Positions 11,768 through 56,100 of a DNA stretch of 64,000 nt are shown here, piece by piece. The notes under the pieces were generated by a model that was not told the DNA's origin, did not search any database, and saw nothing but the letters and a program-made list of their open reading frames with translations. Position 1 is the stretch's first letter. Every line of letters starts with the position of its first letter. The position numbers were made by a program, and so were the translations under genes. Source of the DNA: Sphagnum compactum (Eukaryota); NCBI GenBank assembly GCA_965153455.1, contig OZ234494.1:2170001-2234000 (forward strand). Reading direction: 5' to 3'.

Positions 11768-12966
11768 CTATGTTGGAACTTGGGATGGATCCACTGTTCC
11801 TCCTGTAGTTTCATGAGCTGATGCAGAGTTTGAATCTGGCATGTTGGACAGGGCATCAAAGAAATGTGTGCCACTGACTCTTGTGCTACCATTTGTTTCA
11901 ATTTCAATGGCCCTCTCCAAACCCTCCACCACTTGCTGCATAGTTGGCCTAGCTGCTTCAGAATCTTCAATGCTCCTGAGTGCTATTTCTGCTACCTTCC
12001 ATATGCTCTCAATATTGTTGAAATTGTTTTCCAATGCTTTGTCAATTAGGCCATCAATCCTCCCATGTTGTTGCATATGTAACTTTGCCTGAAAATTGCA
12101 TACTGGTTGGCATTGAAATGGAGCTCTTTATCCAAGTTTCAGAAAGTTGACAAAGTTGATTGAAAAAACTTTGAGGTTGTCTAGTTTCTATGGAAAAAGT
12201 AAGGAAACTTGAGAATAGTGTGGGTTGATTTGTTTGAAAATTTACTCTAGAACTTGTTGACAACAACAGGAGTGATTGTAACCAACAACCAAATCCTTGA
12301 ATTTTGTTGAGGCGACGAAAATCTTGGCCTGAAATTTTGTGACAAATCTTGTTGATTTCTAGATCATGACCACATGTTTACTGAAATCAATTTTTTTCAA
12401 TCTTCACAAGTAAGCTTGAAAGGAATTGGAGTTTTTAGAGAAATCGAAGTTGTTTTTAGAGTTGTTACTCACCTTTTCTCGAATGTGCACATAATCTTTA
12501 CTGAGATATGAACAACCACATATCAATTCCAGCAAAACAATCCCGAAGCTATAGACATCACTCTTTTTTGTTAATTGGCCTGTGCTGACAAAACTGAACA
12601 ATAACAAGATCAAAATTAGCCTAATTTTTGTAATATGAAGAAATTTCCAAGGCAAAAGACTGTAAATGAAGAAAATTGTTGGACATGACACAAGATGAAT
12701 GTAATAAGTGTTGCACAGCATGACAATGTGAGTAAATTTTGTTTTGACAGATACTGTAATCCTCCTAAAATGGTTCTCAATTGCATCTCATAAGATAAAG
12801 TTGACTCACAAACTTGTAGATTTAAAGTAAACCTCGAATTGAAAGAGGATGTAAATCTTGTTTGGAAACATACATTGGGTCGATATAACCGTAAGTGCCC
12901 TTGACGCGTGTGAAAACATGGGAGGCATCTGGTTCCAGTATCAACTTCGACACACCAAAATCAGCT
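11768..12966 (-). pseudogene. C-terminal half of a receptor-like kinase domain (subdomains VII-XI), 5'-truncated
   Basis: Exons 12874-~12966 (ADFGVSKLILEPDASHVFTRVKGTYGYIDP), 12473-12593 (GQLTKKSDVYSFGIVLLELICG), 11768-12088 (SIWKVAEIALRSIEDSEAARPTMQQVVEGLERAIEIE). No subdomain I-VI exons seen upstream on this strand. Confidence 0.85.
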
Positions 12967-15242: not shown

Positions 15243-18200
15243 ATGTCGCCATGTCAGCAGATCAGTGTGGCAATGATTATGCCGCTAGTGCTGTGCGTTT
15301 GTATTCCCCTGACACGGGCCCAACCAGGTGCGTTAGTCGTAATGCGTGAATGATCCCACGTGCAGCAGGCCTTCCCCTTCTTAATCAATGCGTTGGGGTT
15401 AGATACACACTTTGTTTTATACTTGCAACACTGGACATAGACAACCATGTTAAAGTGCGACACACGCTGGTTGTCTAGCTTAATATCTGGTGTTAAAGTG
15501 CAGCGACATATATGTACTTCTTCTAATCTTGGGTCGAAGAAAATGGTCTAGATCTAATATAGATCGGAAAAAACTTCACAACTATATATATATATTTATA
15601 TGTGAGAAAATAAGTATGTTTCTCGTTTTGACCAATTTTGCAGGCTTTGTGAGCATCGACTGTGGAAGTTCTACCACTTACAACGACACGAATGGCATCA
15701 CTTGGGTACCAGACACTGGCTACACTTTCACAGGGAGAAACTACGTTACTAATTCTACGACAACTAATCCTCTTCACAATTTGAGGTATTTCCCCGAGAA
15801 CAGGGATAAGAACTGTTACGTCTTACCTGCAACTCCAAACAACTTCTATATGGTCCGCGTGAGTTTCTTGTATCCTGACTTTCTCAATTCAAGCTTCCGC
15901 CTCGAAATGGAGGCGCAGTTGGCAGCTACTATTACTTTCCAAGCGAATTCAAGGACTATTCCACAAGTCTACGAGGCCTACTTATCCACGACCAGAGACA
16001 CTATTTATGTTTGTTTGGCGCGCTCTACCACAGCGGACGTCCCTTTCATGTCTTCCCTGGAGTTGAGGCCGCTTGATACCAACAATATGTATAAGATTTT
16101 GGCTCAAGGGAACTACTTGTACAACGACTTTCATGCCAATTTTGGGAGCCCTACGCCGATCATAAGGTTCTTCCAATCTGTCTTAAACCCATGTATTCTC
16201 TTCTCATCCTCGACCTCTAAACTCCAAGCCCCTAATACACTGCAAGTGAAAGGATTGACCACGCAAAACCCATTGTCTTCGCCCGAAGGAGGAGTATAGC
16301 TGATCCAAGGAGCCGGTAGCTTGATAAGAGTGATAGCAAGTAGTGAAGGATCATCCAGGTGCTTTCGCATGGTCAGCTTGATATAGTTGAAAACCAACTA
16401 GGCGTGTAAAAGAAACAAAACACAGATCAGGCTGCAAATCTATCTTCGAACATTTCATGGGTGGTCAAGCTGTAGGACCATCCACAGTCCGTTTAATGAG
16501 AAGATTTGTGCAGACACATTTGGGTGCTAAACTTCTCTATGAGCTCTAACCATGTATGGCACGGGACGCGCAGGTACCCTGATGACCCATTTGATCGTCA
16601 ATGGAAGAACAATATACCTGGTGTCAATCCAATCTCCACCCAGCTGGCGATCAACACGACAAGTGTCTTTGTAGATTTCAATCATTGGAACAAGGTTCCA
16701 GAGATAGTGATGCAGACTGCGGACTCGAGGCCCAAAGGTCAATCTGTCACCATCACAACCTCATTCCTCCCGGACAACAACAATAACTACTATATTGCGT
16801 TTGACTTCGCGGAAATCTCTCCAGAAGCGGAGAACCAGTCGCGGAGTTTTAGCCTAGCTCTGAACGGCGAAACAGTTACGAATAATATCTTTGTTGCGAA
16901 CCTTGCTGGTGGGATGTATGTGGCGTTTGAACTCTACTACTACGACGTCCTGCTCAACAGCACAGGAACTATGAAATTGATTCCTGATCCGACTTCGCAG
17001 CTCGGACCCATTTTGAATGCTCTTGAGCTATTCGTGTTGACTGATCCTGCACCAAATCGAACTTTCCTCGCAGATGGTAAGCCAAGTCCACCATATCTAC
17101 AATGCTGATCGTTCGTGGAGATTGAACTTGGATGAAGTGTAGTAATGCAATCAAGGGGAATTGAGACACTTCTTGTCAGTAGGGTTCAACAACTCCACAT
17201 GTGTCTCTAACATTTGTGAATCTCTAGAACTCTTGTAATCAAGGCAAATTCGAGCAACCATTGTCTTTGCAGCAAAATATGGGTTTTCCTTTCAGGTAGC
17301 ACACCTTGGCTCATGACATGTGTCTGTGTGACCTAAACTTTGTGGATTCATTTAGTGAAATGCCAAATATACAATGGTGTTTGTTGTGGCGCATATAATT
17401 GCACTAGTAATAATATTGAAAAACTTGACATATTAGAGTTATCCGTAAAGTCATGCCCTGTTGGGCCTGAGGTGCACCCCTCATTCGATGCTTCATCCCC
17501 TCCTGGCTGTTGTCGGCAAAGTCATGAAATTTTATTAAAGAAGGGTATGAAATACTGAAACTCAGGATTAAATGCACCAGGCTCAAGAACATTTAGAGCT
17601 ACAGTACACATAGCAGCAGTGATTGGTTGAACCCGTTCACCAAAAGAAAGGACAGGGCAAACTCAGTTTAGCACCAAATTTGCTGCTAAACTGAGTTTTC
17701 ATGCCCAGTTGAAGCCCAGTGTACTTTTTTTCCTGTTTTTTGAAATCTCATCCCCTATGTGACCAAACAGGGGTTCCAGTGCCGTCTTTGCCTAATAACT
17801 TTATTATACTAATGTCAAATTGTAATATTAATGTATAATATGTGCCACAATACGCATCACATAATTTACATTGCAACTGATCAAACCACAAAGTTTATGA
17901 TGAGCCATGGGCCATGGCCTACTACTGCTGGAGGAACGACCATGTTGTGTTGTAGTGGTAGATTATGACCTTCATTCTTCTTGCTTTATTCTTGGACCTA
18001 GCTAACACAAATGTTTGCCTTCAATGTGTAATTTTACTAATATGAATTTATTGTGCAATTGATATCATGTTATAGAATTGTTCTAATTTTGTTGTAAATT
18101 TTATATGCCAAGTAGAAAACTCTTATCTCTTTCAAGTTTCTTAAGTGTCTCCTAGTATATTGTTAGGATTTGATCAAAGAATTACTTGAACATTTTAGGA

Positions 18201-20050: not shown

Positions 20051-22268
20051 GGGTGAGGGGTTTCTCCTGCACTCTTCGAGGAAGGTCAAGGTTACACACA
20101 AATTAATTTGTAAATCCCTATCAAATCCAGATGATTTAAGATTAATGGAAAGTTCGCAAAGCTCTCAATGATCTAAAGCTAAACTAAAAGTCATCCTTCA
20201 GTTAGGTACAACATTTTCAACAGACTATGTGTTAAAGCTGACCATGTACTATAGGGGACCCATTTTGCAGCATGGCAGACGATTGATTGAACAACCAACT
20301 AACTAACTAAACTGCTAAAGGTGCCTACAAAGGCGCAGACAAGAATTCGTTGCCCATCTGGACGTGTTAGGATCCAGATGGGCAGTGATTCCAACTATGG
20401 AAGGTTACAGCTGAAGGTCAACAGAGGAATCACAACTGCCCATGCACCCAGTACCCGCTAAAGCAGAGCCGCTGAAGCCAATGACGTGCAAAAAGAATAG
20501 ATTATGGTGAAGTACATGACCACCAGAACAGGCACCCAATACTCGCTGAAGCAGAGCCGCTGAAGCCAATGTAAAGTGTAAGTGCAGGGTTGCATCATCA
20601 AGTGCACCATCCCACCACACTTGTACACACTGCTGCTAGCCCTATCAGACGTGTGCCACAGATGCAGTAGACGACAACCTCTCACGACCTTTTCAATCTA
20701 TGTTTACGTGTGTGTGTGTGTGTGCGTGCATGCACGTATGTCTGTTTTCTTTGAGAATCTAAATAGTCGGAATTGCCATCCTTACTGTCTCGCTCGCCGT
20801 CTTTTTTGATCATCTGCTCTCTTGCGTGCGCGCCTACACGTGTGTCTGTTCTCTTTGTGAATAGAATAGTAAGAAATGCCTAATGCACACGTGTGTGTTT
20901 AAAATAAATCAAACATGCACCTAAAACTGGTGGGTCTTTGCCGGTCCTAACCCACCCCATCCGGCTTAAACAGACATCCATCCCCGTCTGGTTTAAATAG
21001 ACGGCTGATGGGATGGATGAATTAAAAAATTAAAACTTTATATATATATATAAGATTATTTTTCATTTTTCTATTTTATTATTATTATTATAAACCAAAA
21101 AAAAAACACCGAAAACAGAGAACGAAAAAGAAAATGAAAAGAAGAAGACCACGTCCTCTGTATAGTAAATCTTGGGGGTGCCCCCCCTGGGGCCGAGAAA
21201 GTTTGTGCCCCGTGCCTAATGCATAGGTGTGTTTTAAAATAAATCAAACATGCACCTAAAACTGCTGGGGGCGGGGGGGGGGGGGTTATTTATTTCTGCT
21301 AGGGTTTTCTTCCTTGTATGATGCCATCCATGGATGGATGACGGGACGAATGAATGGACGGGTCGGACGGATGGAGGAAATGTCCGTCCGGTTGGATGAC
21401 GGGACGGATGACGGACATGGGAAAGCCACGCCCTTGCTATATTTAGGTGTGTGTGTATTTGACGGTACATATTACAAAATTACAACTACAAACTATAGTT
21501 CCAAAATAACGGCGTCCGCACAGTTTCACATAGCCAAACAAAACGGCCGCTCTCAAGGATTAAATGAGATAAAGAGGGACTGGATAGGTGTTGGACTATA
21601 TAGTGGGTGAAGGGCATTTCCAAAAGTAAGGGACCTAGAACGACACAATAGCCAAGTTTGGGCTCACATTTTGCAAATGTTCTCAACTCATGTGCTCTAC
21701 CCATAGTTAAAGCATGAGGAAAGCATTATCGGGAACTTGAACATATATATCATAGTCCCTGAACGGATTCAGCAAATGTTTGCCAAATAATTAATATATT
21801 TAGAATCTTAAACGTTGGCTCTGGATTTTTGAAAATTTTAGTATAGATAATATCATTAGCAAGAGACAACAAACTGTAACGACTATATAGCAATCCTGGT
21901 TTGTCTAAACTGTGTGTGATGGGTGTTTGGCCCCCATAGACCTGAGTTCTCAAATCTCAAATCTGACCCCCATAAACTTTTTTTTGTTGATTTTGGCATT
22001 CTTGGTAATTTTTTTTTTCAAATTTTAATTAATTTGAAAATTATATAATTAATGCTGAATTTGTTAAAGAGTATGATAAATCAGGAGAAGTAAATTAGGA
22101 GGGGGAAGGGTTCTTTACACCTTAAGTGTAACATCGTCACCCCCTTCCCTCTCGAGGAGTCCAATCTCACCAAAGACACCAACTTGAATGTTACTTGGAT
22201 CCAGCAGGACCTTGTGTTGCTGCAATGCAAATGACAACTTACCATGATTATTTAAATACTTGTGAATA

Positions 22269-22506
22269 TCAAAGTTTTGACTTGGAGAAGAGTTTAGAAG
22301 TTGTGGAAGCATGTGGACCCAATGATCTGCAATCGAGCCTAGCGCGCCAGCCACAAAGAAGATCAGCAACAATGTTCAGCCGATCTTGGCCCCATAAAAT
22401 GGAAACAGATTTGCCTTCAGGATCAAGAACTTGAAATGTTGGTGCTCCAATGCCACCAAGTTCCTGCACCTACCATCCCTCCCAAATCAGTTCCAGGCAC
22501 CATTAT
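22269..22506 (-). pseudogene. Captured exon of a DsbA-family protein (2-hydroxychromene-2-carboxylate isomerase / GST-kappa-like), copy 1
   Basis: VQELGGIGAPTFQVLDPEGKSVSILWGQDRLNIVADLL matches the G.FG.PTF...WGQDRL C-terminal signature. Preceded by an AG acceptor. Near-identical to ~36382-36616. Confidence 0.65.
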
Positions 22507-23281
22507 CGAGAAGTACAGTTTTAAAGGAGGAGCAAGAAAGTGAATTCTCACATGTTGCTCAGCTCTGCTTAAAGTCCAATTGCAAGGTACTCACCACAGG
22601 GTGGAAAATGTTAAATCGGCCAAGGATCGCAGCAATACTTTTGGGATTGACTACATTTAAGACCCTTGATCGATTCAACATATTCCACCTCAAGATCTGA
22701 GGCAGGATCTGGCCCCTCCGAAATCAACAACTATTTAAATAATTACTCATGTCTGGATCCTTCGCAGCTCACTCACAACTCAGGAAGAAGGTTCATACAG
22801 AGTGCAAAAGAAAAACCTACCTTCAAATATCACCCCAGGTCCTTGATGATTATATCAATTGAATAATAACATCAGCAGCAGCAGGGCGGCGGGACCCCCA
22901 ACCCCCTTCTCCTCGCTTTGCTTCACTTCAGAAGGCAGCGCGGACGGATCGAACGAAGACCAAATTCCGAAAAACAGAAAATGACGGAGAGCGGCCATGT
23001 GGATGCGAGAGCATGGAATCCGTCCGTCAAGGACGGATGGGAGGAGGCGGCCTGAAATTTTTTAAAAAATTCTTGGCCGGCAGACAACAGGCAAGCAGAT
23101 CATTGGGTTCCTTGATTCTCATTCGCACTCCGACATGGCAGCTCGATCGCATCACATAATCACTTCGTTGGAGATTAGAAAGCCTAAGATCAACTCCTAA
23201 TGAGATGTGATGCGCGGGAGCTCGCGAGGGTGGTTGAGAGGCCATCCCGCACCCGCGTGCACGCGGACACGTGTCTCACCC

Positions 23282-23560
23282 ACGCCCTCGGTATACTTAG
23301 CTACTGTCGGTGGCTACATGTCCGTCCGTCCGGTTGGATGACGGGACGGATGACGGACATGGAAAAGCCACGCCCACGGTATACTTAGCTACTGTCGGTG
23401 GCTACATGTCCGTCCGTCCGGTTGGATGACAGGACGGATGACGGACATGGGAAAGCCACGCCCTCGATATACTTAGCTACTGTCGGTGGCTACATGTCCG
23501 TCTGTCCGGTTGGATGACGGGACGGATAACGGACATGGGAAAGCCACGCCCTCGCTATAT
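23282..23560. repeat. 88-bp tandem repeat, ~3.2 copies, inside a Helitron unit
   Basis: ACGCCC(T/A)CG(G/A)TATACTTAGCTACTGTCGGTGGCTACATGTCCGTC...GAAAGCC starting at 23282, 23370, 23458 and 23546. Confidence 0.9.
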
Positions 23561-23683
23561 TTAGCGCCGGACGGATTTAGGGGAAGCTTCATTCGCACGG
23601 CTTCAGGGGAAGCTTCATTGTTCCTTTACTATAGATAACTAGTTTGAGCCCCGTGCATAATGCACAGGTGTGTGTATTTGATG

Positions 23684-26278: not shown

Positions 26279-27253
26279 ATGGACAACTCAGAATCCAACA
26301 TCGATCTCACTCAAATCCTCGCCGCCCTTCAACACCTTCAACAAGAAAATGCCGTGCTTAGAGACTCGGTGACCCGCCTACAAAATCAGCCACCACCTCC
26401 TGCCCCAGTACTTCCTGCTCTTGCAATGGCCGCCTAAGAACCCAAGATCAGTCTGCCAGAAAAGTTTGATGGAACGCGCCTCAAATTTCGAGGCTTTGTC
26501 AGCCAGGTACGCCTGATCATGCAACTACACCCCCGTCGTTATTTTGATGACACCACTCGTGTAGGATTCGTTGGAACCCTACTCACTGGGACAGCTGCAG
26601 CATGGTTTGCTCCCATCCTGGAAACATCATCCCCTCTTCTACAAGATTTCAACGCCTTTATGGCGGAATTTGAAGCAGTATTTGGGGACAGTGATAAGGC
26701 CAGGACTTCAGCCAACAAGCTGCGTCGCCTCCAGCAAGGGACACGTTCGGCCATCGTCTACGCTTCAGAATTCAGGCAGCTTGCCTGTGACGTCAATTGG
26801 GGAGAAGTTGCCTTGATTGATCAGTTTCGCTGTGGGCTTCGTGATGATGTTCAAGATCTTTTGTTGACACTCGCAGACCCTTCTTCCTTCAGTGAAGCCA
26901 TCACCTAGGCAATTCGGTGCGATAATCGTCTGTTCGAACGTCGCTAGGAAAAGAAAGTCACCTCCAACGCCCAGCTTTGGAACAGTCGGCCTATTACGCT
27001 CCCCTTAGTTCCCCAAACAACACCAGTTGCCCGACCTGCCTCTTTTGGACCTGCTCCGATGCAGATCGACACAACTAAGTTTAAATCTTTGACAGAAGCC
27101 GAGAAACTTCGCCGAAGGACAAACAATCTATGTCTTTACTGTGACAACCCAGGGCATATAGCTCGTCAATGCCCTCAAAAGCTTGTCAAACTTCAGGTAC
27201 AAGCTGTGGAAACTCCCCAGGAGTTGGAAAACAAGAACATCCAGTCACAGTAG
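26279..27253 (+). pseudogene. gag: Retrotransposon gag with zinc knuckle, three in-frame stops
   Basis: ATG at 26279, EPKISLPEKFDG, LRRLQQG...[28 protein letters not shown] (CCHC). Premature TAA at ~26434 and TAG at ~26906 and ~26945. Confidence 0.92.
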
Positions 27254-30200
27254 GAGCCGTGCGACTGGATCTCACCCAACACCACCTTTGCAAAGGCTCC
27301 TGTTCCGCTGTTGGTCCCAGTCCCAGTTTCACTCAGTATGTGGACATCATTCGTATTCCAGAAGACATACCACAAGTGTCAGCTTTGGTGGACTCCGGCG
27401 CCACCTCTTCTTTCATCGACCAAACATTTGTCGTCCAACACAACATCCCTGTGGTCAAGAAGTCAACCCCTGTTCCGGTAGAGGTTATTGATGGGAGAAC
27501 CATTGCTTCTGGTGCAATCACACACGAGACAACCCCTCTAGAACTCTGTATCGGTAAGCACACGGAGAAGATTGTTTTCAACATCATTTCCACCCCTTAC
27601 CATCCCATCATCCTTGGTCTGCCTTGGCTAGAAGCACACAACCCTATCATTGATTGGCGATCTAGAACCCTCACCTTTAGCGCACAACGATGCACCTCTC
27701 AAGAACCCCACGCTCAGAAAAACACTTTGTCCAGTCCTGCCAAGAACCCTGTGGTCGAGAACCCAAAGAGGGTCGGAACCAATTCCAGTTTTATCAAGTC
27801 TGTTATGTCAAATCCTGCAGTCAAGAACCTCCGATTGGTCAGAACGAAACCTTGTCCTGTCAAGAATCTTGTCAAGAATTCTGCCCAGAAAACCAACCCT
27901 GTCCAGATCTTCGTTGATAGAGCTGTCCCTTTCTATCGGGCTGCTAAGAATCTTCAAGTCTTTGCCATCCATGTCAACCCAGCCAACACCACAAACCCCC
28001 AATCGGAACCAACACCTGTCAAACTTCCCAAGAAGTACAAGGACTTTGTTGATGTTTTTGAAAAGATTAATGCTGATCAGCTCCCCGCCCATAGTCCATA
28101 TGACTGCCCGATTGATCTAGAAGAAGGACACTCACCACCCTTTGGTCCTATCTATGGCCTATCAGAACCGGAACTCCAAGCCCTGCGTGATTACCTTACT
28201 GAAAATCTTGTCAAGGGGTTCATTCAGCATTCCAAGTCTCCAGCCGGCGCCCCAATTTTGTTTGTCAAGAAGAAGGATGGCTCCCTTCGACTTTGTGTGG
28301 ATTATCGTGGACTCAACAAGATAACCAAAAAGAATCGATATCCTTTGCCCTTGATTTCAGGTCTCCTAGATCGACTACGTACCGGGAAGATCTTCACCAA
28401 GCTTGACCTCCGTGGAGCCTACAACTTACTCAGGATTCGCCCTGGTGATGAATGGAAGACAGCTTTCCGCACACGCTATGGCCACTTCGAATACACGGTC
28501 ATGCCCTTCGGCCTCACCAATGCACCCGCAGTCTTTCAACATCTGATGAATGATATCTTCCGGGATTACATGGACGAATTTGTCGTGGTCTATTTGGATG
28601 ACATTTTAATCTTTTCCAAGGACCAGGAAACCCACGACAAACATGTACGATTGGTGCTTGCGACGCTGCGGGAGCATGGCTTATACGCCAAGTTGGAAAA
28701 ATGTGAATTCGACAAATCTTCAGTGGCGTTCCTCGGCTACGTGATCTCTCCAGATGGCATTTTCATGGACAAGTCAAAGGTCGAGACCATCCAGTGTTGG
28801 GCTACTCCATCCTCGGTCAAGGACGTTCAACGCTTCCTAGGGTTTGCCAACTTCTATCGTCGGTTTATCAAAGGCTACTCCAAGATCACAACACCGTTAA
28901 TAACCCTGACTTGCAAAGACAAGCCCTTCTCGTGGAATCCAACGGCCCAGGCTGCTTTTGATACTCTCAAGATGGCAATCACCTCTGCACCCATCCTGAT
29001 ACATCCCGATCCTGCCAAGCCATTCATTGTGGAAACGGACGCTTCAGATTTTGCCTTGGGAGCTATTCTATCTCAATTTGGAATAGATGGGTTGCTGCAT
29101 CCAGTTGCTTTCTATTCACGGAAGTTAACCAGTGCCGAAATCAACTACCAGGTCTACGATAAGGAACTCCTGGCAATCATCACGGCATTCGAGCAGTGGA
29201 GACCGTATCTTGCCGGAGCTCAACATCGAGTCCAAGTTCTGACAGATCACAAGAATCTCCTTTATTTCACAACTACTCAGACCTTAAATCGTCGCCAGGC
29301 ACGCTGGTCTATCTTCCTAGCTGATTTCAACTTTGAGATTCAGTATCAACCCGGCACCCAGCAAGGGAAAGCTGACGCGCTATCTCGTCGTTCAGAATAT
29401 GAACTTCGAGCGGGGGATGAGGCCTACGGCCAGCAGAACTAGACTTTATTCAACCCTAAGCAATTTCGAGTTGCAGCAACAATCAGCACCCTCCCAGACT
29501 CATACCTTGTTAGGGACATCAAGATAGCAACTGAGGAAGACACTTGGGCTACCAACATCAAGAAGGAACTCCAAGAACGACCAAGGAACCCAAATCGTGA
29601 TGACTTGGATCAATTTGAGCAACAAGACGGACTTCTCCTTCGAAATAACCTGATTTATGTACCCGAAGGACCTATACGCCTAAAAATCCTGAGGGAATGC
29701 CACGACAACACCCTGGCAGGTCACTTTGGAATGGCACGGACTCACGAACTAGTGTTAAGGACTTACTGGTGGCCCAAAATGAACAAGATGCTACGGGAGT
29801 ATGTCAAGTCTTGTGATACATGTGCTCGATCCAAGGCTCCCAGGCATCGCCCGTTTGGACTCCTACAGCCTCTATCGATTCCTAGCCGACCTTGGGGATC
29901 TATTGCAATGGACTTCATCATGGACCTCCCTATTGTCAGAACCAAGAATTCAATACTGGTTGTGGTCGATCGACTCACCAAAATGGCCCATTTCACCCCT
30001 TGTTCCAAGTCAATCACGGCAGAAGAGACAGCTCAGTTAATTCTAGACGGGATCGTCCGACTGCATGGACTCCCCGAGGAAATTGTGTCCGACAGAGGTC
30101 CTCAGTTTGCATCCAAGTTCTGGCATTGTCTATTCGAGCTTCTTGGAGTTGACATTCGGCTATCTTCAGCTTTCCACCCTAAGACAGATGGACAAACCGA

Positions 30201-30984
30201 ACGGACAAACCAGACACTCGAGCAATACCTTCGCTGCACTGTGAACTACCAACAAGACGACTGGCTGGACCTACTATCTCAAGCAGAGTTTGCTTATAAT
30301 AACACAACACATGCATCGACCGGGATCAGTCCATTCTTTGCCAATTACGGTTTTCATCCCAGGTTCAGCCTTGAAATTCCTGGAGACTCCGTAAACCCCT
30401 CGGCTGAAGAAAGGGCCACGAGGCTTGGACAGGTTCAACAGAACCTTATGGCAGAACTCAAGCTAACACAGGAGTGGCAAAAGAAGCAAGCAGACCGCTG
30501 ACGCAAGGACCATCCAAACTTCAAGGTTGGAGACAAGGTCTGGCTTCTCAGAAAGAACATTGCTACCACTCGCCCATGTGCCAAGTTGGATTACAAGCGC
30601 CTCGGACCTTTCAAAATCGCCAAATTGGTTGGTCTAGTGGCTTGCCAGTTGGAGCTTCCACCCCAGTTCAAAATCCACAATGTTTTCCATGTCTCCCTGC
30701 TTGAGCCCTATCATGAAAACCCGATCCCAGAACGTCATCAAGAACCCCCAGCTCCAGTCGAAATTGAAGGCCAAGAAGAGTTTGAAGTTCAGGAGGTCTT
30801 GGACTCCAAGAAGATTCGTGGAAAGCTCCTGTACCTTGTCTTTTGGCGAGGTTATCCTCCTTCTGAAGCTACTTGGGAGCCTGCTGGAAACCTAGTTCAT
30901 GCCCAAGACTTAGTTAATCGATTTCACCAACGATATCCTAACAAACCGGCTCCATCTAGAAGATGTCGCTTGAGGAGAGGATAA
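27226..30984 (+). pseudogene. pol: Retrotransposon pol (protease, RT, RNase H, integrase, chromodomain), two in-frame stops
   Basis: ALVDSGAT (PR), YLDDILIFS (RT), ETDASDFALG/DKELLAI (RNase H), HDNTLAGH...CDTC, MDFI, SDRGPQF, GQTERTNQ (IN), GPF motif, EEFEVQEVLDSK...YLVFWRGYPPSEATWEP (chromodomain). Stops TAG at 29440 and TGA at 30499. Confidence 0.95.
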
Positions 30985-34199: not shown

Positions 34200-34722
34200 C
34201 CCAGAAATCTCAGAAAGTCTCTTGCTACTGCAAAGTGTTCTTTTGCTGCTGCAAAGAAGGTCTCTTATTGTTGCAAAGAATTATCTGGGTGCTGCAAAGA
34301 ATTCTCTTATTGCAGCAAAGCAAGTCTCTTGCTGCTGCAAAGAAATCTTAGAAATCTCTTGCTATTGCAAAGAAAGCCTCTTGTTGCTGTAAAGAATTTT
34401 CTTGTTAGTGCAAACAAAATTTCTTGCTGCTGCAAACAAAGTCTCTTGCTGTTGCAAACAAAGCCCCTTGCTGCTGCAAAGAAATCTCAGAAATCTCTTG
34501 CTGCTGCAAAGGAAGTCTCTTGTTGCTGCAAACAAAATTTCTTGCTGCTGTAAACAAAGTCTCTTGCTGTTGCAAACAAATTCTTTTGCAGCTGCAAAGA
34601 ATGCATCTACCTGCTGCAAAGAATTCTCTGGGTGCTGCAAAAAAATTATCTTGTTGCTGAAAAGAAATCTCGAAAACTTCTTGCCGAAGCAATGACAGCG
34701 TCTCTTGTTGCTGCTGCAAAGA
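34200..34722. repeat. Degenerate ~21-bp minisatellite (CTCTTGCTGCTGCAAAGAAAT-like)
   Basis: Roughly 20 variably spaced copies of TCTTG(C/T)TGCTGCAAA. Confidence 0.85.
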
Positions 34723-36364
34723 GATTATTATAAACAAAAAGAAACACCGAAAACAGAGAACGAAAAAAAAAATGAAAAGAAAACCCCGTCCTCTGTACAG
34801 TAAATCTTGGGGCCGGACGGATTTAGGGGAAGCTTCATTCGCACGGCTTCAGGGGAAGCTTCATTGTTCCTTTACTATAGATAATTAGTTTGAGCCCCGT
34901 GCATAATGCACAGGTGTGTGTATGGTTAGCCGAGTGCTTAGAGGGGGTTCCAAAAGTTTTATATTTTTCTCTCTGACCTGTAACCAAATGTGGCTAAAGT
35001 CCTCTTGTGGATGACTCGCAAGTCCACTTACCTCACAAAATTGAAATTAACCACAGGTTATTGGTAAAATCAGGCGATTAGGGGGCAAGAACAGCCACTT
35101 TTGGAATGTGTAACAGGGAATGAAATTTTACAAAACCAAATAATTGTGTTCAGAGAGTTCAAGCCAGCACTATCTCATGTTGGGTAGCAGGAGAGGCTTC
35201 TTCTAGGCTTGGTGTCTTTCAATCTGGTAGAAAATTTATTCATACTTGCAAGTTCACTAAATTTTGCCTTTGTGAACTCTGAGGGCATTCTTACTGTTTT
35301 CATGGCTACCTGTTTAGGTTATGGATTTCACATGTTACAACTTGGTAGATGGGCATGTTCGGACCAATAATCTGACTAAGAGCTTCTTGGATTGGTGGTG
35401 CAGATTCATGAGCTCCTGGAATTTGTATTTGAAGATTTGAATGTAGAAATGGGTTTGCGTTTCTCCAGTAGTTTGCTTTGCAAGGGCTAATCCTGTGCAG
35501 TGATTGCAGAAAATATTCTCTCAAGTATATAGTCTTTCAATGTTGTGAGATGCAACTTCTCAAATTCATGTTTCAAAATTCTACAGTTTGTTCTTTCTCT
35601 TTTCCCCCAGAAATGGAAACACTACAATCTTCACTTTCACCTTAGATGTGTAAGGTATGTCATGTCATCTGATTTGAATCACTTTTGAATCACAAAAGTT
35701 GGGCAGCCCTCAGAGTCATAAGGTAACAATGCAAAGCATGCACAACCCCAATGCAATGCAACAATCATACTTTAACATTATAGACTTGTTGAACAAATAC
35801 AGATAAATCGGGATCCAGTAGACACTTAATGTGGTTCCCTTCCTTTTTGCACAGAGTTACAGCTTTGCTCTACCACTAAAACAACTCGTTTGCTTCTATA
35901 GGTCCAAGATACATTGAGAAAGAAATGGACTGGTATGTGATTGATCAATACGTGAATGTATTTTCACTCTTACCCCAATTGCTCCACTGACTCAGATGCA
36001 GGGATTCTATTTGTCTCATCCTGTTCTGCAAGTTCAGTTGTTTTCACGTTTTGACCTTCCTCAACATGTTGGATCTTGTATGCTGCAAGCTCCTTCTTCT
36101 GGTTGATTGCAGTGTCATACGCTCGCTTGAGGTGTGGTTGATTCGAAATCCAGGTGTGGCGATGGGATCCGTGGATTGTAGGAGATGGATATCTGCAAAA
36201 ACACAGCAGGATCAACCTGGATTTCTCCAAGCACTCGGATCCGAGAGAAGAAGAAGAAGCACAGCCACCACCACTCCTTCCATCTCTCTTCACCTGGCTG
36301 GCTGTGAGATCCACCAAACCACAACTGTTGCTCCATTCCCTTCAAGAGCGCGCCTGCTCTTTTG

Positions 36365-36616
36365 CTACACCCACGCCTTTTCAAGTTTTGACTTGGAGAA
36401 GAGTTTAGAAGTTGTGGAAGCATGTGGACCCAGTGATCTACAACCGAGCCTAGGGCGCCAGCCACAAAGAAGATCAGCAACAATGTTCAGCCGATCTTGG
36501 CCCCATAAAATGGCAACAGATTTGCCTTCAGGATCAAGAACTTGAAATGTTGGTGCTCCAATGCCACCAAGTTCCTGCACCTGCCATCCCTCCCAAATCA
36601 GTTCCAGGCACCATTA
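36365..36616 (-). pseudogene. Captured DsbA/HCCA-isomerase-like exon, copy 2
   Basis: CAG|GTG CAG GAA acceptor at 36581. VQELGGIGAPTFQVLDPEGKSVAILWGQDRLNIVADLL...EKAWV*. Confidence 0.65.
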
Positions 36617-36763
36617 TTTTAGACTCAATGCCCAAATAAAATGCCAGACTCTAGGACCTCTTCATATGGTTCCATTTCTTTGTGAGTGAATCTGCTGGTT
36701 CTGGATGAGGATAATTGCATAGCCTGCTTTCTGACAGATGCAGTAATCTGACAAAGAAATCTC

Positions 36764-37014
36764 ATGGCAGCAAGTGTCTCTTTGATTGAAATTTTTGAAA
36801 ATATGCACAAAGTGCGAGTTGATGAGCTTCCTCTGCTCCCTCAAAGCCCTCATTTAACAGGCACAGATGATGAAGAGAGACTGGTTAAACAGGAGAGGCT
36901 TGAACAGCTGCCGGATACTACAGGCGCCAGTGTTGGAAGTTCAGTGTTCAATCTGGCAACCACTGTCATTGGGGCAGGGATTATGGCACTTCCGGCCACC
37001 ATGCGCGTTTTGGG
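36764..37014 (+). pseudogene. Captured 5' fragment of an amino acid transporter (AVT6/SNAT-like, Aa_trans family)
   Basis: ELPLLP...GASVGSSVFNLATTVIGAGIMALPATMRVLG. Homology stops abruptly at a segment shared with another Helitron unit. Confidence 0.85.
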
Positions 37015-37419
37015 TTCTTGGCCGGCAGACAACAGGCAGGCAGATCATTGGGTTCCTTGATTCTCATCCGCACTGCGACATGGCAGATCGATCGCATCAC
37101 ATCGCATAATCACTTCGTTGGAGATTAGAAAGCCTAAGATCAACTGCTAATGAGATGTGATGCACGGGAGCTCGCAAAGGCGGTTGAGAGGCCATCCCGC
37201 ACCCGCATGCACGCCGACATGTGTCCCACCCTTCGACTTGACGTCCTCGCTAATAGTAGCTACTGTCCGTCCGGAGTCAGGGCAAGGCAAAATCGTGAAA
37301 TTTCTGTTGGGAATTTGGCCTGAAAATGTGTCCCAAACAAAGCTCATAATTAGTGTCAGCTTTTGACTCCCTGTTGCTGAAGAAAAAGGAAAACAGTAGT
37401 GTGCAGAACAGAAGTTTAC

Positions 37420-38272
37420 CTGTGAGATTACCTGAGCTTCAGATGCTTTAACTGCCTCCACTTCCATGAGAGCTGCTTTCAGTTGACTTTGTAACATAGC
37501 TGTGTGTGCCTGGACTTCCTCCAATTCATGTTTCGCTGCGGCTGCTTCTTTTCTTCCCTTCAATGCCATTGCCTTTTCCTCATCTGCTTCCATTGTCACC
37601 TGTCATCACACACCCCCCCCACCCCATCTTCTATTCTCAGATCGGCTATTTATACTTGAAGACCTGGGTACTGCTGTACCTGTTTGAATATGTAAAAGTG
37701 AATAGCCTCTTACCCATCACTGGCATCAGACCTTAGAGAAGGAAAAAGCCTCTCAACTGACCTGATGCAAGGCATCATTTAAGCCAGATATGGACTCTTT
37801 TGCTTTGCTCTCTGCCTGTATGCCAGCTTCTAAGAGAGACTTAGCTTTGGAGAGCTCCAACTCCATCTCTGTAGTAACATCAGCAACAGTCACCTCATAC
37901 TCCTCCTTCACAGCTGCAAGCTCTGTCATGGTGTTTTTCAGCTCTGCCTTCAGGGATGCCAGAGATGCAAACATCCTTTGCTCCTGCTCTATTGCCTTCT
38001 TCACTTTTGCGTTTGACTCCTCCAACTACATTGCATATGACCTTGCCTTCCAACACTTGAAAATCAGTTTTTAATCTCTTGTCCTCTTTGGGTTTTGTTA
38101 CAAATCAGCAGCATAACAATTAACATCAGCCTCAAAGAGACAATGACAAATATTACAGAACTCAATTGATTGAACTGAGTACCTTTTCTGCAGTTTTTGT
38201 TGCATCCTCAAGGTCTATCCTCGATCCTCGCAATTTCAATCTGTAATCCCCAACAGCACCTTTCAATTTCAT
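37420..38272 (-). pseudogene. Captured multi-exon fragment of a WEB-family (WEB1/PMI2-like) coiled-coil gene
   Basis: Exons 38183-38272, 37762-38025 (SLASLKAELKNTMTELAAVKEE...LNDALHQ) and 37432/37420-37599 (VTMEADEEK...LKAALMEVEAVKASEAQ), with GT-AG introns retained. Confidence 0.7.
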
Positions 38273-41200
38273 CTTGGGGCCGGACGGATTTAGGGGAAGC
38301 TTCATTCGCACGGCTTTAGCGGAGGCTTCATTGTTCCTTTACTATAGACTAGTTTGAGCCCCGTGCATAATGCACAGGTGTGTGTATTTGACGGTACATA
38401 TTACAAAATGATGCTCAATGATATTGGTGTCGTAATTACTTTGTTTATTTTAAATAAAAAATCTAGTATGAATCCATTTTTGCTTGTGCATTTGACGATA
38501 CATATTACAAAATGATACCTACCAACTACATTTCCAAAACCTCTTTATATACCACATTCCGCATGTATCTATCGGGAGCCTGGCCGTTGAAAATCTTGAT
38601 GTTTGCACTACTTGTGACCCGTGAAATAACAACATAGAGCTGACCATGGGAATAGACCGGAGATGGCAAATATACCCCAACGTTGTTGAATGTTTGACCT
38701 TGACAGCTTAGTAGGGTTTCCAGAAATTACATGAATAAAATGAAGATTTTTGCCCTCAGCCCCCTAATAGCTTGGAAGCATTCCAGGAGGCTCATGTCCT
38801 TGGCCATAATGAATAGCTTGGACTTATTTCCAGGCTTACAATGATTGGAGAGGAAACTGATAATTTGTGATCTCTGTAGAAAAAAGCTGCATGCAAAGGA
38901 ATGCAAAGACAAATGATAAAAGTTCAAGGGGGGAATTCCTATCCAGTACATTAAGGCGAAGGAGCAAAAGAGCACAACCAAGAATATTTAGCTACTGGTT
39001 TACGGTAATTGTTCCAAAATTTCTATTACCTCACTATTCATCTTCCACCTTGATAAAGATTGTTGTGCAGAAATATGAGCTTTTGCTGCAAGCTCAAGGA
39101 TGACATTTGTAGAGTGAAGCTTTCCAATGTGGTTAAGGAAGAATAATATGAAATCACCTGCAATTATACCCATATGACAACAGAGGTGAACTAACTGTAG
39201 AAGCAAAGTCCTGCAAAAACAAAAAGACCACCCTGAACCTGTATGAATATAAGAACATAACTCAAGAATCGATGCAGAAATTTCCAACATATTCATATGC
39301 AAAAACCCCCCAACATATGTTGAACTTGGAAAGCTCAGAGCAACTGGCAGCTATGAACAATACGGAGCACCACGTCAAGTCGAATATAAAAATCAGCGCT
39401 GGTGCTGCATCCAAACACAACGATCAGGTAAGTATTTGAATGAGACTTTTCATTACCACAGAATATTGTATAAAGTCTAACTGCTACGGGTCATGATGTA
39501 CGTGCGATCAACTACCGATGGTGCAGGATGAAGCAGTGCAGAAGAGCTTATACCCACAACATCGTTAAGCTGTTGTTGTTGTTGCTGCTGCTGTTGCCGG
39601 ATTGCCACTGACGTGAATCTGCACCAGATCAGGAGATTGTCGACATTGAAAGCTCATGCGACAGCAAGTAGCTCTGGTGATGAGGAGGAGGAGATTCTGA
39701 TGGAGATAATTCTCTACAACTTTGACCATGCAGACTATGTGGATCCTGTGCCCGCTGAAGCAGAGCCGCATCGTAATGGAAAATAATGAGTTGCGAAAGC
39801 CATGTGCAAGTTCCTCTTAATATAGCTTCTACAAAGTGTAAGTGCAGGGTTGCATCATCAAATGCACCATCCCACCACACTTGTACACACTGCTGCTAGC
39901 CCTATTAGACGTGTGCCACAGATGCAGCAGACGACAACTTCTCGCGACCTTTTCAATCTATGTTTGTGTGTGTGTGTGTGTGTGTGCATGCACGTCTGTC
40001 TGTTTTCTTTGAGAATCTAAATAGCCAGAATTACCATCCTTACTATCTCGCTCGCCGTCTTTCTTGATCATCTGCTCTCTTGCGTGCGCGCCTGCACGTG
40101 TGTCTGTTCTCTTTGTGAATAGAATAGTAAGAAATGCCTAATGCACACGTGTGTGTTTAAAATAAATCAAACATGCACCTAAAACTGGTGGGTCTTTGCC
40201 GGTCCTAACCCACCCCATCCGGCTTAAACAGACATCCATCCCCGTCCGGCTTAAATAGACGGCTGACGGGATGGATGAATTAAAAAATAAAAACTTTATA
40301 TATATATATATAAGATTATTTTTCATTTTTCTATTTTATTATTATTATAAACAAAAAAAAACACCAAAAACAGAGAACGAAAAAAAAAATGAAAAGAAAA
40401 AGACCACGTCCTCTGTATAGTAAATCTTGGGGGTGCCCCCCTTGGGGCCGGGCATGAGGGGGCGGATTAAGGGGAAGCTTCATTCGTCCGGCTTCAGGGG
40501 AAGCTTCATTGTTCTCCGATCACAGCAACGTCATGGAAGGAGACCCTTATTAGTACTCCTTATAAGAAGAAGAAGAAGTTAAGCTTAGAATCGTCCTCAT
40601 AAATACGTAGACCTTTAGAATGGGTTGTTATCAATATGTACTCAACGATATTCTTAAGTAATTTTGGTGGCATATATAAGAAGCTTAAGCTCTTTGAATA
40701 TTTTCCATAAAAGGAAGAAAAACTTGATTTGTAATTGTCTTTTGCATCACCAACAACAGATTAATATGACATTAATAGCGAGTGCCATCATCAGTTTGAG
40801 CCCCGTGCATAATGCACAGGTGTGTGTATTTGACGGTACATATATATATATTTATAAGATAATTTTTCATTTTTCTATTTTATTATTATTATTATAAACA
40901 AAAAGAAACACCGAAAATAGAGAACGAAAAAGAAAATGAAAAGAAAAACACCCTGTCCTCTATACAGTAAATCTTGGGGGTGCCCCCCCTGGGACCGGGC
41001 AAGTTTGTGCCCCGTGCCTAATGCACAGGTGTGTGTTTAAAATAAATCAAACATGCACCTAAAACTGCTGGGTCTTTGCCGATCCTAACCCACCCCATCC
41101 GGCTTAAATAGACGGCTGATGGGATGGATGAATTAAAAAATTAAAACTTTACATATATATATATATAAGATTATTTTTCATTTTTCTATTTTATTATTAC

Positions 41201-43790: not shown

Positions 43791-44422
43791 TTGTGCCCCG
43801 TGCCTAATGCACAGGTGTGTGTTTAAAATAAATCAAACATGCACCTAAAATTGCTAGTTTGAGCCCCGTGCATAATGCACAGGTGTGTGTATTTGACGGT
43901 ACATATATATATATAAGATAATTTTTCATTTTTTTATTCTATTATTATTATTATAAACAAAAAGAAACACCGAAAACAGAGAAGGAAAAAGAAAATGAAA
44001 AGAAAAACACCCCGTCCTTTGTACAGTAAATCTTGGAGGTGCCCCCCCTGGGGCCGGGCAAGTTTGTGCCCCGTGGGTAATGCACAGGTGTGTGTTTAAA
44101 ATAAATCAAACATGCACCTAAAACTGCTGGGTCTTTGCCGGTCCTAACCCACCGTATCCAGCTTAAATTGACATCCATCCCCGTCCGGCTTAAATAGACG
44201 GCTGATGGGATGGATGAATTAAAAAATTAAAACTTTATATATATATATATAATTTTTCATTTTTCTATTTTATTATTATTATTATAAACCAAAAAAAAAA
44301 CACCGAAAACAGAGAACGAAAAAGAAAATGAAAAGAAAAAGACCACGTCCGGTTCGGACGAATTTAGGGGAAGCTTCATTCGCACGGCTTCAGGGGAAGC
44401 TTCATTGTTCCTTTACTATATA

Positions 44423-52382: not shown

Positions 52383-53128
52383 CTTCTTGCCTTCTCCTCT
52401 GACCTTTTTCCTCAAACCCTAAAATCTGAAACTGTGTGCACCTGCTACTGCTTCCCACCAAATAATAAGTACCCACTCAATCTCTTTCTGTCTCACTGTG
52501 TGCATTTTCCAAGCTTTCAAGATGCCCTCTGTCTCTTCTGCAACAAACATGAGACAAAAACCCTTCCACAAAACCTAACGAAAACCCTAAAGAAAGAAAC
52601 AGAAGACAAAACCTTCCACAAACCCTAAAAAAACCAACCAAAATAAAACACCAACAGAAGCAAAGAAGGATAAAACGGTGCTCTACAAAAACTGTTGTTT
52701 CTTCACAAAATCATTCTTCCCACAGCGTCTTTGCAAAATCTGGGAGATGCAGAATCATTTCACAGACTAAAGAAGACTGGTCAAAGAAGAACAGGAAGCA
52801 GAATATGTATCAGACCTACCTACCCAAGGAAAAAAATTCTGATGTCTTCTGGTTCCTTCCTCAAGACCTACAAAAATCCAGAGAAGACAAGATTCAAATC
52901 CCAAGACAGGAAGAAGAAGAAGAAAGAAGGAAAGGATGCAAGAAAGAAACCGCTTCTTCTTCTTCTTCTCTTCTCTCATCGGATTCTTCTTCTTCTTGCC
53001 TCTTCTGGTAATGGGTATGGGTCAGATGATCATTACTCAGACTCTGAAGAAATCTGTGCCAAGAATCTGAAGAAAACAAAAAGAGAGAGCAAGAGGAGGA
53101 GCAAGAAGGAGAACAACCCATTGTGTGC
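52383..53128. promoter_or_regulatory. Divergent (bidirectional) promoter and 5'UTR region with telo-box motifs
   Basis: Start codons of the two genes are ~750 bp apart, head-to-head. AAACCCTAA telo-boxes near 52414, 52582 and 52621. Confidence 0.55.
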
Positions 53129-56100
53129 ATGGCAATGGAAGAGAGCAAGGGGAGTTGCTGCTGCTTCTGTGTGGGGCAGAGAGTGTTGTCTCTCACAAGC
53201 AACAGTAATGAAAGAGGAACTGTGAAGTATGTGGGAGCAGTGGAAGGATACGAGGGAGTGTGGGTGGGAGTGGAATGGGATAGTGGACAAGGTCGGCACA
53301 ATGGAAGAGTGAATGGGATTCAGTACTTCTGCACACAAGATCAGCTGCCCTCAGGCTCCCTTGTGCGACCCAACAAGCTGAGTGCTGGTGTTTCCTTGCT
53401 GGATGCTCTCTCTTCTCGCTACAAAGCAACTTTGTCACAATCTGAAGAAGGTAAGGAACAAACCCTCCTCCTCTTGTTCTTGTTCTTCTTCAGTTAGCTT
53501 CTTTTGTTTATTGATACTGGAAGAGATCAAGTAGAAGACATCTCTGTCTGCACACAAAGAGAAGCTGCACATGCAGAAGACATCTCCGTCTGCATACAAA
53601 GAGAAAATGCACATGCAGAAGACATCTATCTCTGTCTGCAAACAAAGAGAAAATTCACATGCAGACGACATTTCTGTCTGCACCCAAAGAGAAATGCACG
53701 TGTAGACGACCTCGTTGTCTGCACAGAAAGAGAAAATGCACATGCAGAAGACATCAAACAGAAGAGATTTCTCTCTCCACTCTGTCTCTGCAAATACATT
53801 TTTTTTTTTGTGTGAAATGCACATCTTCTTCTACTTCCAAAAGAAGAAAGAAGAACAAAAACAACAACAACAACAACAACAAGCATCATCATACATCTTG
53901 TGGGTGCCGGATGTGTTGGTGGGGTATGTCAGATGACATGTATGTTACAACACAGAGGCGGATGCGAGTGACAGTTGAACTCGTTGGCAAGAACCAGGTG
54001 GCAGAGCATCAAGCACATCTGGAGATGCTCACAGTTGCCACTCTTGCATATACTGGTGTATGTTCTGCAGGAGCACAAGGCGAGATCCGATCGTCTGCTC
54101 CAAGTAAAAAGAAAAACCCCATATCTCTCTCTCACCCTTCTTCTTCCTCTCATATCTCTCTCACCCCTCCTTCCTCCTCCTCTCTTTTTTATTGTTGTTG
54201 TGCAAATGAAAGATCTGATCTTTTCTCTTTGACAAAAACAAAATTGGTTTTGGGAATTTTTGTTATGATGGTATCTATGGTTTGTTGCTTGCACAAAATG
54301 CACAAAATGCTCATATATTTCCTCTTTCTTTCTGTTGAAAATTTTCTTGGAGCAATTGGGTAATACCCAAATTGTAATCTTCTACATCTAAAATGGGGTT
54401 TCTATAACTAAAATGCACAAAATGCTCATATGTTTCCTCTTTCTTTCTTTTGTTTCTTGGAGTGATTCAGTAGTACCCAAATCGTTGTAATCTTCTACAG
54501 CAAACTTAGGGTTTCTATAACTGTGAATATTATTTTGCTGCTGCTTCTACAGACATTACTGATCTGGATCTTACGGGGAATCTCATCTCGGACTGGCAGG
54601 TAAAGAGAGACAACAATTCTCACAGGAACCCACCCATCCAAGAAAGAAAGAATTCCCCAAGGACTTTGGCTGTAAACAAATGAGATATGCAAATAGAGAA
54701 AAAAACTGATACATATGTGTTTTGATCACAAGAGTGTTTGTTTGCACAAACTTCTATTGACTTATGACAGATGATGACAACAACAACTGTAGCTAGTGAA
54801 TGAAAGGATTGAACTGCAGTATATTTTTGGTGTTTGTGATTTTATTTTTTATGGCAGGAAGTTGGCCGCATTTGTGAAGAGCTACCAGCTCTAAAGCTTC
54901 TTGATCTCAGCAGCAGTCGCATTGCAATTACCACGAGAGATGGATTGCCAGTGCTCTCAAACTTGACAACACTTGTGCTCAACCACTGTGCCATGAGATG
55001 GAAACATGTATAGCACGCCCCCCCTCCATATACTAAAGTGGAAAAGTCTCAAAGATTCTCCTCGTATCTGTTGGTTTTGGGAATCTTTTGATGCTTCTTA
55101 CTGATTGTGTTTTGCTGTGAGTGCGAGTTCAATGTCTTGATTTTTTTTGCCCTTGCAGCATTAAGCTTGGTTAATTCAATGCTGAATTCTATTTGTGCAG
55201 GTAGAAGCACTTAATGGGTGTCTTCCAAAAATTGAGGAGCTATCCCTCTGTGGAAATAAGTTGCAGAGTATTGAGGTACTTGTTGGCTGCCATCATGTCA
55301 ACTGCTTATTGTTCTTCCTGGAACAATGGTAGACATTTGCTGGATATGCAGTTCTTGTTTTCTTTCGATTGAGCATCTTTTCATTTGAGTGCTGCAATTT
55401 GTCTTTTTGTCTTCATGTTCGATGTGGGAGGGTGGGGTAAGGCAGGCGGACTCCACCTGCACAGAAACAACAACCACCAGTCAGCCTTTTGTTGGAGGAT
55501 TCGAGTCACTGCGCCTTTTGAACCTGGAAGACAACTTGTTTGGCAACTGGAATGAGATTGTAAAGCTATCTCGATTGCAGAGGTTGCATTTCATCCCTTC
55601 AAAATGCATGTGGTTTGGTCTTTGTGCACTCAAAAGAATCTGATAGTTTTCTTTCTCACCTAATTAGACTTTAACCCAATAAGACTTGTGCCTTCCAAAT
55701 ACTCCTCCTTGCTGGAGTTTTGGTCATTCAAATAGAGTTCCAGTGCAAAGTTCCAGCTCTACGTAATTTTTTCAGGGCTACCCATATGTGGAGAAATCAG
55801 GTTTGTTTTAAGAGCAGCTCCACCAGTGCTCAGTACGTGGCGCTGCAAAAGAAAATTGGATGAAGAAAAGTCAAAACATGCCCAGTTTGGCTCAGCAAAA
55901 TGGTTTTGGCCCAGCATTTTTGCACAGGATGTAGAGGCTCCCAAAAGGCACATCAAAGCCTAACACCTGCTGTTGATTGGCTAGATAGTTTGATTGGTCC
56001 AGATGGGTTGCTATTAGTAGTCTCCCACTTATTTGCAATCCCAGTTTTAGTTTTATGGGCAGGGTTGGAAAAAAGTAAATAACCAGACTTGGATGTGAAA

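Follow-up and report, generated by a model that had tools for sequence, protein, structure and literature searches.

The window analysed here is a 64,000-nucleotide stretch of Sphagnum nuclear DNA of approximately 40% GC, the genus having been placed by protein searches. Its minus strand carries a Helitron whose cargo is a mosaic of captured host-gene fragments, among them part of a WEB-family coiled-coil gene and the end of a DSBA-family gene, and which lies in a head-to-tail cluster of related units (Table 1). An initial annotation had read positions 36365–38272 of this cargo as a spliceable chimeric open reading frame (ORF), in which WEB exons are fused to a DsbA-like C-terminus and translation starts at an ATG created where the transposon meets its cargo. 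The element has the hallmarks of a canonical Helitron, namely a TC 5′ end, a CTRR 3′ end and a GC-rich hairpin near the 3′ end, CTRR being the canonical 3′ end as defined in the accessible part of Lynch et al. (2015; PMC4528327). The window has 50 stop-to-stop ORFs of at least 110 amino acids. Of these, 49 (46 + 3; all but 35991–36542 on the plus strand) were scanned against Pfam, and no match to a Helitron Rep or PIF1 helicase family was found among them; the unit is therefore regarded as non-autonomous.

Both ends of the unit adjoin other Helitron units. On the 5′ side, the CTAG of the upstream unit abuts TC at 38349/38348 without a gap, a head-to-tail junction as in a Helitron circle junction, and the minus-strand sequence TCTATAGTAAAGG starts at 38348 directly after the hairpin and GCTCAAACTAG. 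The stem of the 3′ hairpin is 8 bp long and its loop 3 nt (−6.8 kcal/mol, z = −3.0), and three of 200 shuffles equal it. RNA from four runs was aligned to positions 34950–38450: X22, a polyA run of which approximately 12% was used (464 aligned reads), and contigs of X1, X2 and X18. Those X18 contigs that match the 3′-end side depart from the window at 38348, which marks a true terminus there. In contigs of the same run that finish the 3′ terminus at 38349, the T at 38348 is still present and divergence begins after it; a host target site cannot be seen because both ends abut Helitron units. At the far end of the unit the sister unit starts right after CTAA. The 5′ TC is also found in this sister unit (34804–34881) and in the unit near 23635, and the copy near 44420 has TA. 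A 5′ end comes after a 3′ end in all four aligned units and in the unit near 23635, so that these are head-to-tail Helitron junctions. In total, the window contains 31 copies of the 3′ hairpin motif, counted with up to three mismatches, and six of the 22-nt 5′-end motif.

Read along the minus strand, the unit passes from the leader through the WEB fragment, an internal module, an antisense transporter exon, the DsbA end and the fragment at 36382–36158 into the remaining sequence up to the 3′ end. Parents of the WEB, Aa_trans and DSBA pieces were identified, none of them in the window itself; the cargo comes from at least two unlinked host genes whose parents lie elsewhere. The transporter exon is antisense to the proposed ORF and falls within its 'intron 3', and the plus-strand ORF at 36767–37015 shows 93% identity to residues 64–146 of a 535-residue Sphagnum Aa_trans protein. 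The captured transporter piece stops exactly at the 3′ border of its exon, 37015, and the adjoining module sequence (37015–37107) recurs in X1 and X18 contigs and at 23070, ending at the same point each time; this may reflect coincidence, capture from a spliced copy or a module boundary. After the DsbA exon the frame continues for five codons to a TAG at 36367–36365. No Pfam match was found for the fragment at 36158–36382 or for the cargo at 34950–36157. The RNA of the parent of this fragment contains, over 36263–36295, a 33-nt joint that goes backwards (five reads), and this parent therefore contains a tandem duplication relative to the captured copy.

Table 1. Features of the Helitron unit, its cargo and related copies in the window.
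Feature	Position	Strand	Details
Non-autonomous Helitron unit	34885–38348	−	5′ TC at 38348–38347; 3′ CTAA at 34888–34885
3′ end of upstream Helitron unit	38349–38378	−	Hairpin 38378–38358, spacer, CTAG 38352–38349
Conserved Helitron 5′ leader	38275–38348	−	Out-of-frame ATG at 38331, in-frame ATG at 38305
Capture joint	38271–38274	−	AGATGAAA starts here; AGAT is a 4-nt microhomology between sister unit and donor WEB gene
Captured WEB-family fragment	37301–38274	−	Part of long exon (38274–38183) and the introns and exons below
WEB native intron 1	38182–38047	−	
WEB native exon 2	38046–37762	−	In-frame TAG at 38028–38026
WEB intron 2	37761–37600	−	
WEB exon 3	37599–37420	−	
WEB native intron 3	37419–37320	−	100 nt, acceptor intact
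Stub of next WEB exon	37319–37301	−	19 nt, without donor site
Helitron-family internal module, not host coding	37016–37300		86.7% identity to unit at 23070–23311
Aa_trans (AVT6-like) amino-acid transporter, N-terminal exon	36668–37015	+	Pfam E = 9e-5; parent mRNA on plus strand
End of double-DSBA gene	36383–36672	−	92 nt of intron sequence and last exon (36580–36383), without its own stop codon
Further captured fragment of an expressed parent gene	36158–36382	−	RNA depth approximately 14; loose ends at 36158 and 36382
Sister unit 5′ end	34804–34881	−	Family D4 (18 copies); goes on with the family's canonical sequence
Second copy of DsbA last exon	22272–22506	−	In unit with 5′ end near 23635; parent's TGA and 3′ untranslated region kept

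Exon 2 of the proposed ORF shares 97% identity with P0001, a 434-residue WEMBL-family protein of S. compactum, and 73% with the full-length, 1018-residue P0002 (two matches among 571 candidates). Against the Pfam WEB/WEMBL profile (PF05701), exons 2 and 3 align to positions 302–387 (15.2 bits) and 391–442 (19.6 bits), both below the gathering score of 35. The coiled-coil part is of WEB/WEMBL type as the initial annotation had it, and is related to PF05701 by descent, as a fragment covering profile positions 302–442 of 562 rather than as a member protein. The DsbA-like C-terminus was correctly recognized: exon 4 derives from the last exon of a gene for a Sphagnum double-DSBA protein, with 97% identity, over the 93% of the exon that aligned, to the C-terminus of DSBA-family proteins of 407–435 residues (16 matches among 28 candidates), including P0003 and P0004 from S. 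troendelagicum and S. compactum. It corresponds to residues 369–435 of P0004, a protein with two full DSBA stretches. Taken alone, exon 4 has no Pfam match at E ≤ 10 and no relative among solved structures, and it was identified only through the Sphagnum proteins; it is only the tail of a DSBA-like thioredoxin domain (PF01323), not a complete one. The second copy of this exon in the window (Table 1) is 97.4% identical to 36383–36617 and has other breakpoints and less of the intron, and the database proteins P0005 and P0006 carry the exon in further foreign contexts. With such varied breakpoints and contexts, the DsbA exon has been captured or rearranged repeatedly.

The donor type of the WEB piece was found in a metagenome. 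A pattern scan gave 593 matches and at least four loci (L001–L004), among which L001 alone represents the donor type; L002–L004, more distant WEB paralogues of 45–58% identity, were set aside. The WEB gene of the L001 contig (2082–4737) includes approximately 2 kb of upstream coding sequence, and residues 4–750 of P0002 align to it. Its identity to the window is 96.8%, starting exactly at 38274 and extending down to 37626. In-frame stops interrupt both its long exon and its exon 2, and P0001 omits the entire central part of the WEB protein. Given the stops in L001, the TAG in X22 transcripts and their mostly frame-shifting splice joints, described below, the donor WEB paralogue has the appearance of a pseudogene that is still transcribed.

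The same locus decides the origin of the start codon. The ATG lies at 38272–38270 on the minus strand, 76 nt into the unit as counted from its TC at 38348, and the sister unit (34804–34881) has the same 5′ sequence as far as ...CCCCAAGAT before diverging, both as originally described. From this divergence it had been concluded that the AT came from the Helitron and the G from captured DNA. The donor-type gene, however, reads ...CTGAGATGAAATTG..., with the entire ATG in the donor: over the joint L001 has GAATCTGAGATGAAATTGAAAGG, translated as ...AVTKESEMKLKGAVGDYRLKLQG..., i.e. ...KESE-M-KLKGAVGDY.... The same ATG in the same context is present in L001 and in the mRNA of X22, X1 and X2, and 40 X22 reads together with X1 and X2 contigs depart from the window at 38274 into L001-type upstream sequence. 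ATG 38272 is an inherited internal methionine codon of the donor WEB gene, which is one of the observations that the initial annotation had itself named as refuting its reading. Since AGAT is common to Helitron and donor, the AT is assignable to neither and nothing was created; there is no de novo start codon at the transposon/cargo joint. The conserved leader, moreover, holds an in-frame ATG at 38305–38303, 11 codons upstream of 38272 and shared with the sister unit, which would be the first in-frame start for any transcript beginning at the end of the element. The initial annotation had overlooked this ATG, as well as the TAG at 38028–38026, the native acceptor before 37319 and the antisense transporter exon.

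The frame itself is as drawn. Exons 38272–38183 (90 nt), 38025–37762 (264 nt), 37599–37432 (168 nt, or 180 nt to 37420) and 36580–36365 (216 nt with stop) have AG/GT at every border and lengths that are multiples of three, and together encode an uninterrupted 245 or 249 residues. The predicted fusion product would consist of 174–178 residues of WEB coiled coil followed by approximately the last 35–40 residues of a DSBA domain whose N-terminal part is absent. In the parents, both the end of WEB exon 3 and the start of the DsbA last exon are in phase 0. Controls were 126 stretches of 1908 nt taken from the 64-kb window on both strands with a step of 1000, some of which include real genes or the retrotransposon described below; any ATG, phase-0 GT/AG borders, up to three introns of at least 60 nt each and exons of at least 30 nt were allowed. 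An ORF of at least 738 nt was obtained in 42 of the 126 (median 672 nt), and the stretch of the ORF itself permits 966 nt. With a third of the controls as long, the open frame by itself is no evidence; the real part of the observation lies in the exons having been copied from genuine ones.

How these exons are spliced is seen in the parent transcripts. Among the X22 joints listed, the donor at 38183 is joined to 38041 in 21 reads and to 38046 in 12 reads, and never to 38025. Around the acceptor of exon 2, X22 does not differ from the window, and at the TAG at 38028 all 56 reads agree with it. Acceptor 38046 is the ancestral one, P0002 having ARSFAMQ-LEES there; the Q codon of P0002 is TAG (38028–38026) in the window and in X22, and CAG in L001, X1, X2 and X18. 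Use of 38046 leads to the in-frame TAG and a 36-residue peptide from 38272, and use of 38041 shifts the frame and gives a 78-residue peptide. The acceptor proposed for the exon starting at 38025 is the AG of this inherited TAG stop codon. Between exons 2 and 3, X22 joins 37762 to 37618 in 30 reads, which adds 19 nt, and uses the canonical 37762 to 37599 in three; on the letters of the window, the former would be a GT..GG intron, the parent's own intron at this point being covered by none of the runs. In P0001, donor exon 3 ends at 37420 (VISQ) and is followed by AKFPTE.... If the native intron 3 acceptor (before 37319) is used, a stop follows after 19 codons (AKFPTEISRFCLALTPDGQ*), and as this acceptor is intact, joining WEB to DsbA requires that it be skipped.

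All RNA over the cargo belongs to the parent genes, with sharp exits from the window at 38274, 37301, 37015, 36580 and 36383. At 37301, 38 reads run on into SIGTNAEGKE, the WEB residues that come next in P0001; at 36580, 37 reads run on into the DsbA exon that precedes it (...KEELRRRTNE, matching P0003); at 36383, 52 reads run on into the parent's TGA and 3′ untranslated region; and at 37015, 22 reads of the opposite strand run on into the next part of the amino-acid transporter. The splice from 37432 or 37420 to 36580, which the initial annotation required, is absent from the 464 X22 reads and from the X1, X2 and X18 contigs among the joints listed, and the expected reads starting near 38300 are lacking, with none over the leader (38275–38342) in the runs examined and a depth of nil past 38274, the value of the bin there being that of the parent's coverage up to 38274. 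Depth over the internal module is 0 at 37056–37172 and approximately 0.6 at 37173–37289. At 11 well-covered sites in the WEB and DsbA exons, a letter other than that of the window is found in all or nearly all reads (for example 75/75, 53/54 and 66/68). The metatranscriptome RNA shares of 0.16–0.21 represent the exons of the parents and have no bearing on the expression of this copy. Fragments of a WEB-family and a DsbA-like gene do stand side by side in one orientation and are the raw material of exon shuffling, as had been supposed, but no read or contig examined fuses them. Differences from L001 amount to 15 of 377 exon sites (six synonymous, seven replacement and two involving stops) and six of 272 intron sites, and thus give no sign of purifying selection.

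These observations are best explained by a non-autonomous Helitron that lies in a head-to-tail cluster and carries a mosaic of captured fragments, the 'chimeric gene' being only a reading of that mosaic on paper; we put the probability of this explanation at roughly 0.85. The mosaic would have grown step by step out of family-internal sequence and fragments of at least four host genes. Sources overlap at two joints, by 4 nt (AGAT, 38274–38271) and by 5 nt (36672–36668), and such short microhomologies appear to be where the pieces were joined. A 98-nt X18 contig (36617–36714) bridges the transporter/DsbA joint with four differences, and no X18 contig lies over 38275–38342; the organism of X18 seems to lack the WEB capture, and the WEB piece therefore seems to have been added later than the transporter/DsbA joint, to judge from these contigs. 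Each exon is open because it was copied from a real exon, and the frame is kept only if the AG of the TAG serves as acceptor and the native intron 3 acceptor is skipped. Most likely, this copy is silent or at most weakly transcribed in its own genotype and yields no working protein.

Several points weigh against this explanation. In P0001, an automatic gene model of S. compactum, an exon begins at the position equivalent to 38025, and this acceptor may therefore be usable. The stub exon has no donor site, and skipping from WEB exon 3 to the DsbA acceptor is conceivable. At three of the 11 sites the letter of the window does occur, in 1/54, 3/57 and 2/68 reads, perhaps through sequencing error or faint expression; at the others no read has it. 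Maize Helitrons yield chimeric transcripts of just this kind and 'intertwine exons of disparate genes' in them, as stated in the part of Lynch et al. (2015; PMC4528327) consulted. The RNA test is also a weak one, resting on approximately 12% of a single polyA run; the Helitron/WEB joint appears in no run, and the sampled plants may lack the insertion. Finally, the RNA loose ends and contig pieces used here are those listed, with 44 loose ends and 103 pieces beyond them.

Of the other explanations, the one that survives best is that low-level or read-through transcription of the unit gives a noncoding RNA, from which small RNAs that silence the element, and perhaps the parents, could arise. Sense and antisense gene pieces do occur in one unit, maize Helitrons and Pack-MULEs with captured sequences are described as small interfering RNA reservoirs in the available part of a 2026 review (PMC13317346), and a few reads fall on the Helitron ends at 38343–38450 (depth approximately 2 + 1); as no polyA RNA runs across the copy-specific joints, we consider it unlikely. 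A young chimeric gene, transcribed from the Helitron 5′ end and translated from a joint-made start codon into a spliced WEB–DsbA fusion protein, is highly improbable. The frame and GT/AG sites, the shared phase 0, the acceptor of P0001 and the maize transcripts cited above speak for it, and are outweighed by the leader without RNA reads, the missing WEB–DsbA joint, the stop or frameshift given by the acceptors of the parent transcripts, the intact intron 3 acceptor, exons no better conserved than introns, two domains present only as fragments and an ORF length common by chance, while the ATG already present in the donor refutes the created start. There is only a very slight chance that, in the genotype of the window and in a tissue or condition other than those sampled, transcription proceeds from the leader, translation starts at 38305 and the stub is skipped to give a fusion of WEB with the DsbA tail. 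In that reading the family as a whole may keep the DsbA terminal exon as a ready-made module providing a 3′ acceptor and end processing, an idea suggested by its three different breakpoints (36383–36672, 22272–22506 and P0006). That the mosaic is an assembly artefact merging reads of different genes is scarcely credible, for although the joints 38274/38275, 37300/37301 and 36382/36383 are bridged by none of the four RNA runs, the 98-nt X18 contig crosses the transporter/DsbA joint, the DsbA exon recurs in other foreign contexts (the second unit of the window, P0005 and P0006) and the joints fall at microhomologies within a well-formed Helitron.

The captured-fragment Helitron belongs to a cluster of approximately 25 kb at 21200–46530. 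Many of the hairpin copies lie in tandem units of approximately 200–330 bp (31.9–33.5 and 40.1–46.0 kb), some of them inverted (41.9–43.6 kb). Just within the sister unit, an array of tandem repeats of approximately 22 bp (34238–34720) is open for more than 100 codons on both strands, and neither open strand matches a Pfam family. A Ty3-type chromodomain retrotransposon lies within the cluster on the plus strand (26438–30981); its gag, protease–reverse transcriptase–RNase H (765 residues), integrase and chromodomain frames are long and open, and it is therefore possibly young. Host genes are represented elsewhere in the window by exons of a malectin-like receptor kinase gene encoding malectin-like domains (15484–17105, plus strand), a protein-kinase fragment (12407–12787, minus strand) and a CAP-Gly domain exon (53048–53494, plus strand).

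Helitron gene capture and 'chimeric genes' on paper have long been known in maize and other plants, and the biology is not new. Gene-fragment-carrying Helitrons of maize were reportedly treated by Du et al. in 2009. Like those of maize, as far as the consulted part of PMC4528327 describes them, the present element is non-autonomous, has TC...CTRR ends and a 3′ hairpin, and carries cargo from several host genes that are unlinked, in which exons and introns are kept and the exons can on paper be joined by splicing; unlike them, it has a bryophyte host, no element transcript has been seen, one donor is already a pseudogene and the units form a head-to-tail array. Rice Pack-MULEs are likewise DNA transposons that multiply host-gene fragments, some being expressed as chimeras and most non-functional according to the available part of the review cited above (PMC13317346), but they belong to another superfamily, and their terminal inverted repeats and target-site duplications are not seen in this unit, both ends of which abut other Helitrons. 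Head-to-tail junctions and tandem Helitron arrays have been recorded in plant and bat genomes, in the accessible portion of Grabundzija et al. (2018; PMC5876387). The direct joining of CTAG to TC at 38349/38348 resembles the Helraiser circle junction of that study; here it is seen in genomic sequence alone, with no circle or transposition shown, and two other junctions in the window are imprecise. Within the genus, the portion consulted of the HELIANO paper (PMC11417382) describes HelenSM92, a Helentron (HLE2) of S. magellanicum, which is also a rolling-circle element. HelenSM92 has short terminal inverted repeats and TT insertion sites, in contrast to the TC/CTAG ends here, where no RepHel gene was found among the scanned ORFs of the window.

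Among the full-text literature matches listed, which leave subscription papers outside their coverage, there is no report of Helitron gene capture in a moss, and the one relevant to Sphagnum is the description of the Helentron family of S. magellanicum. What is documented here is the capture of several genes by a canonical Helitron family of a peat moss, newly seen in a moss. It also shows how such ORFs mislead, since the frame, the ATG and even an 'acceptor' can be inherited from a decaying donor. For the annotation of Sphagnum genomes, it means that automatic gene models over such units, such as P0001, P0005 and P0006, are likely to be transposon cargo or pseudogenes.

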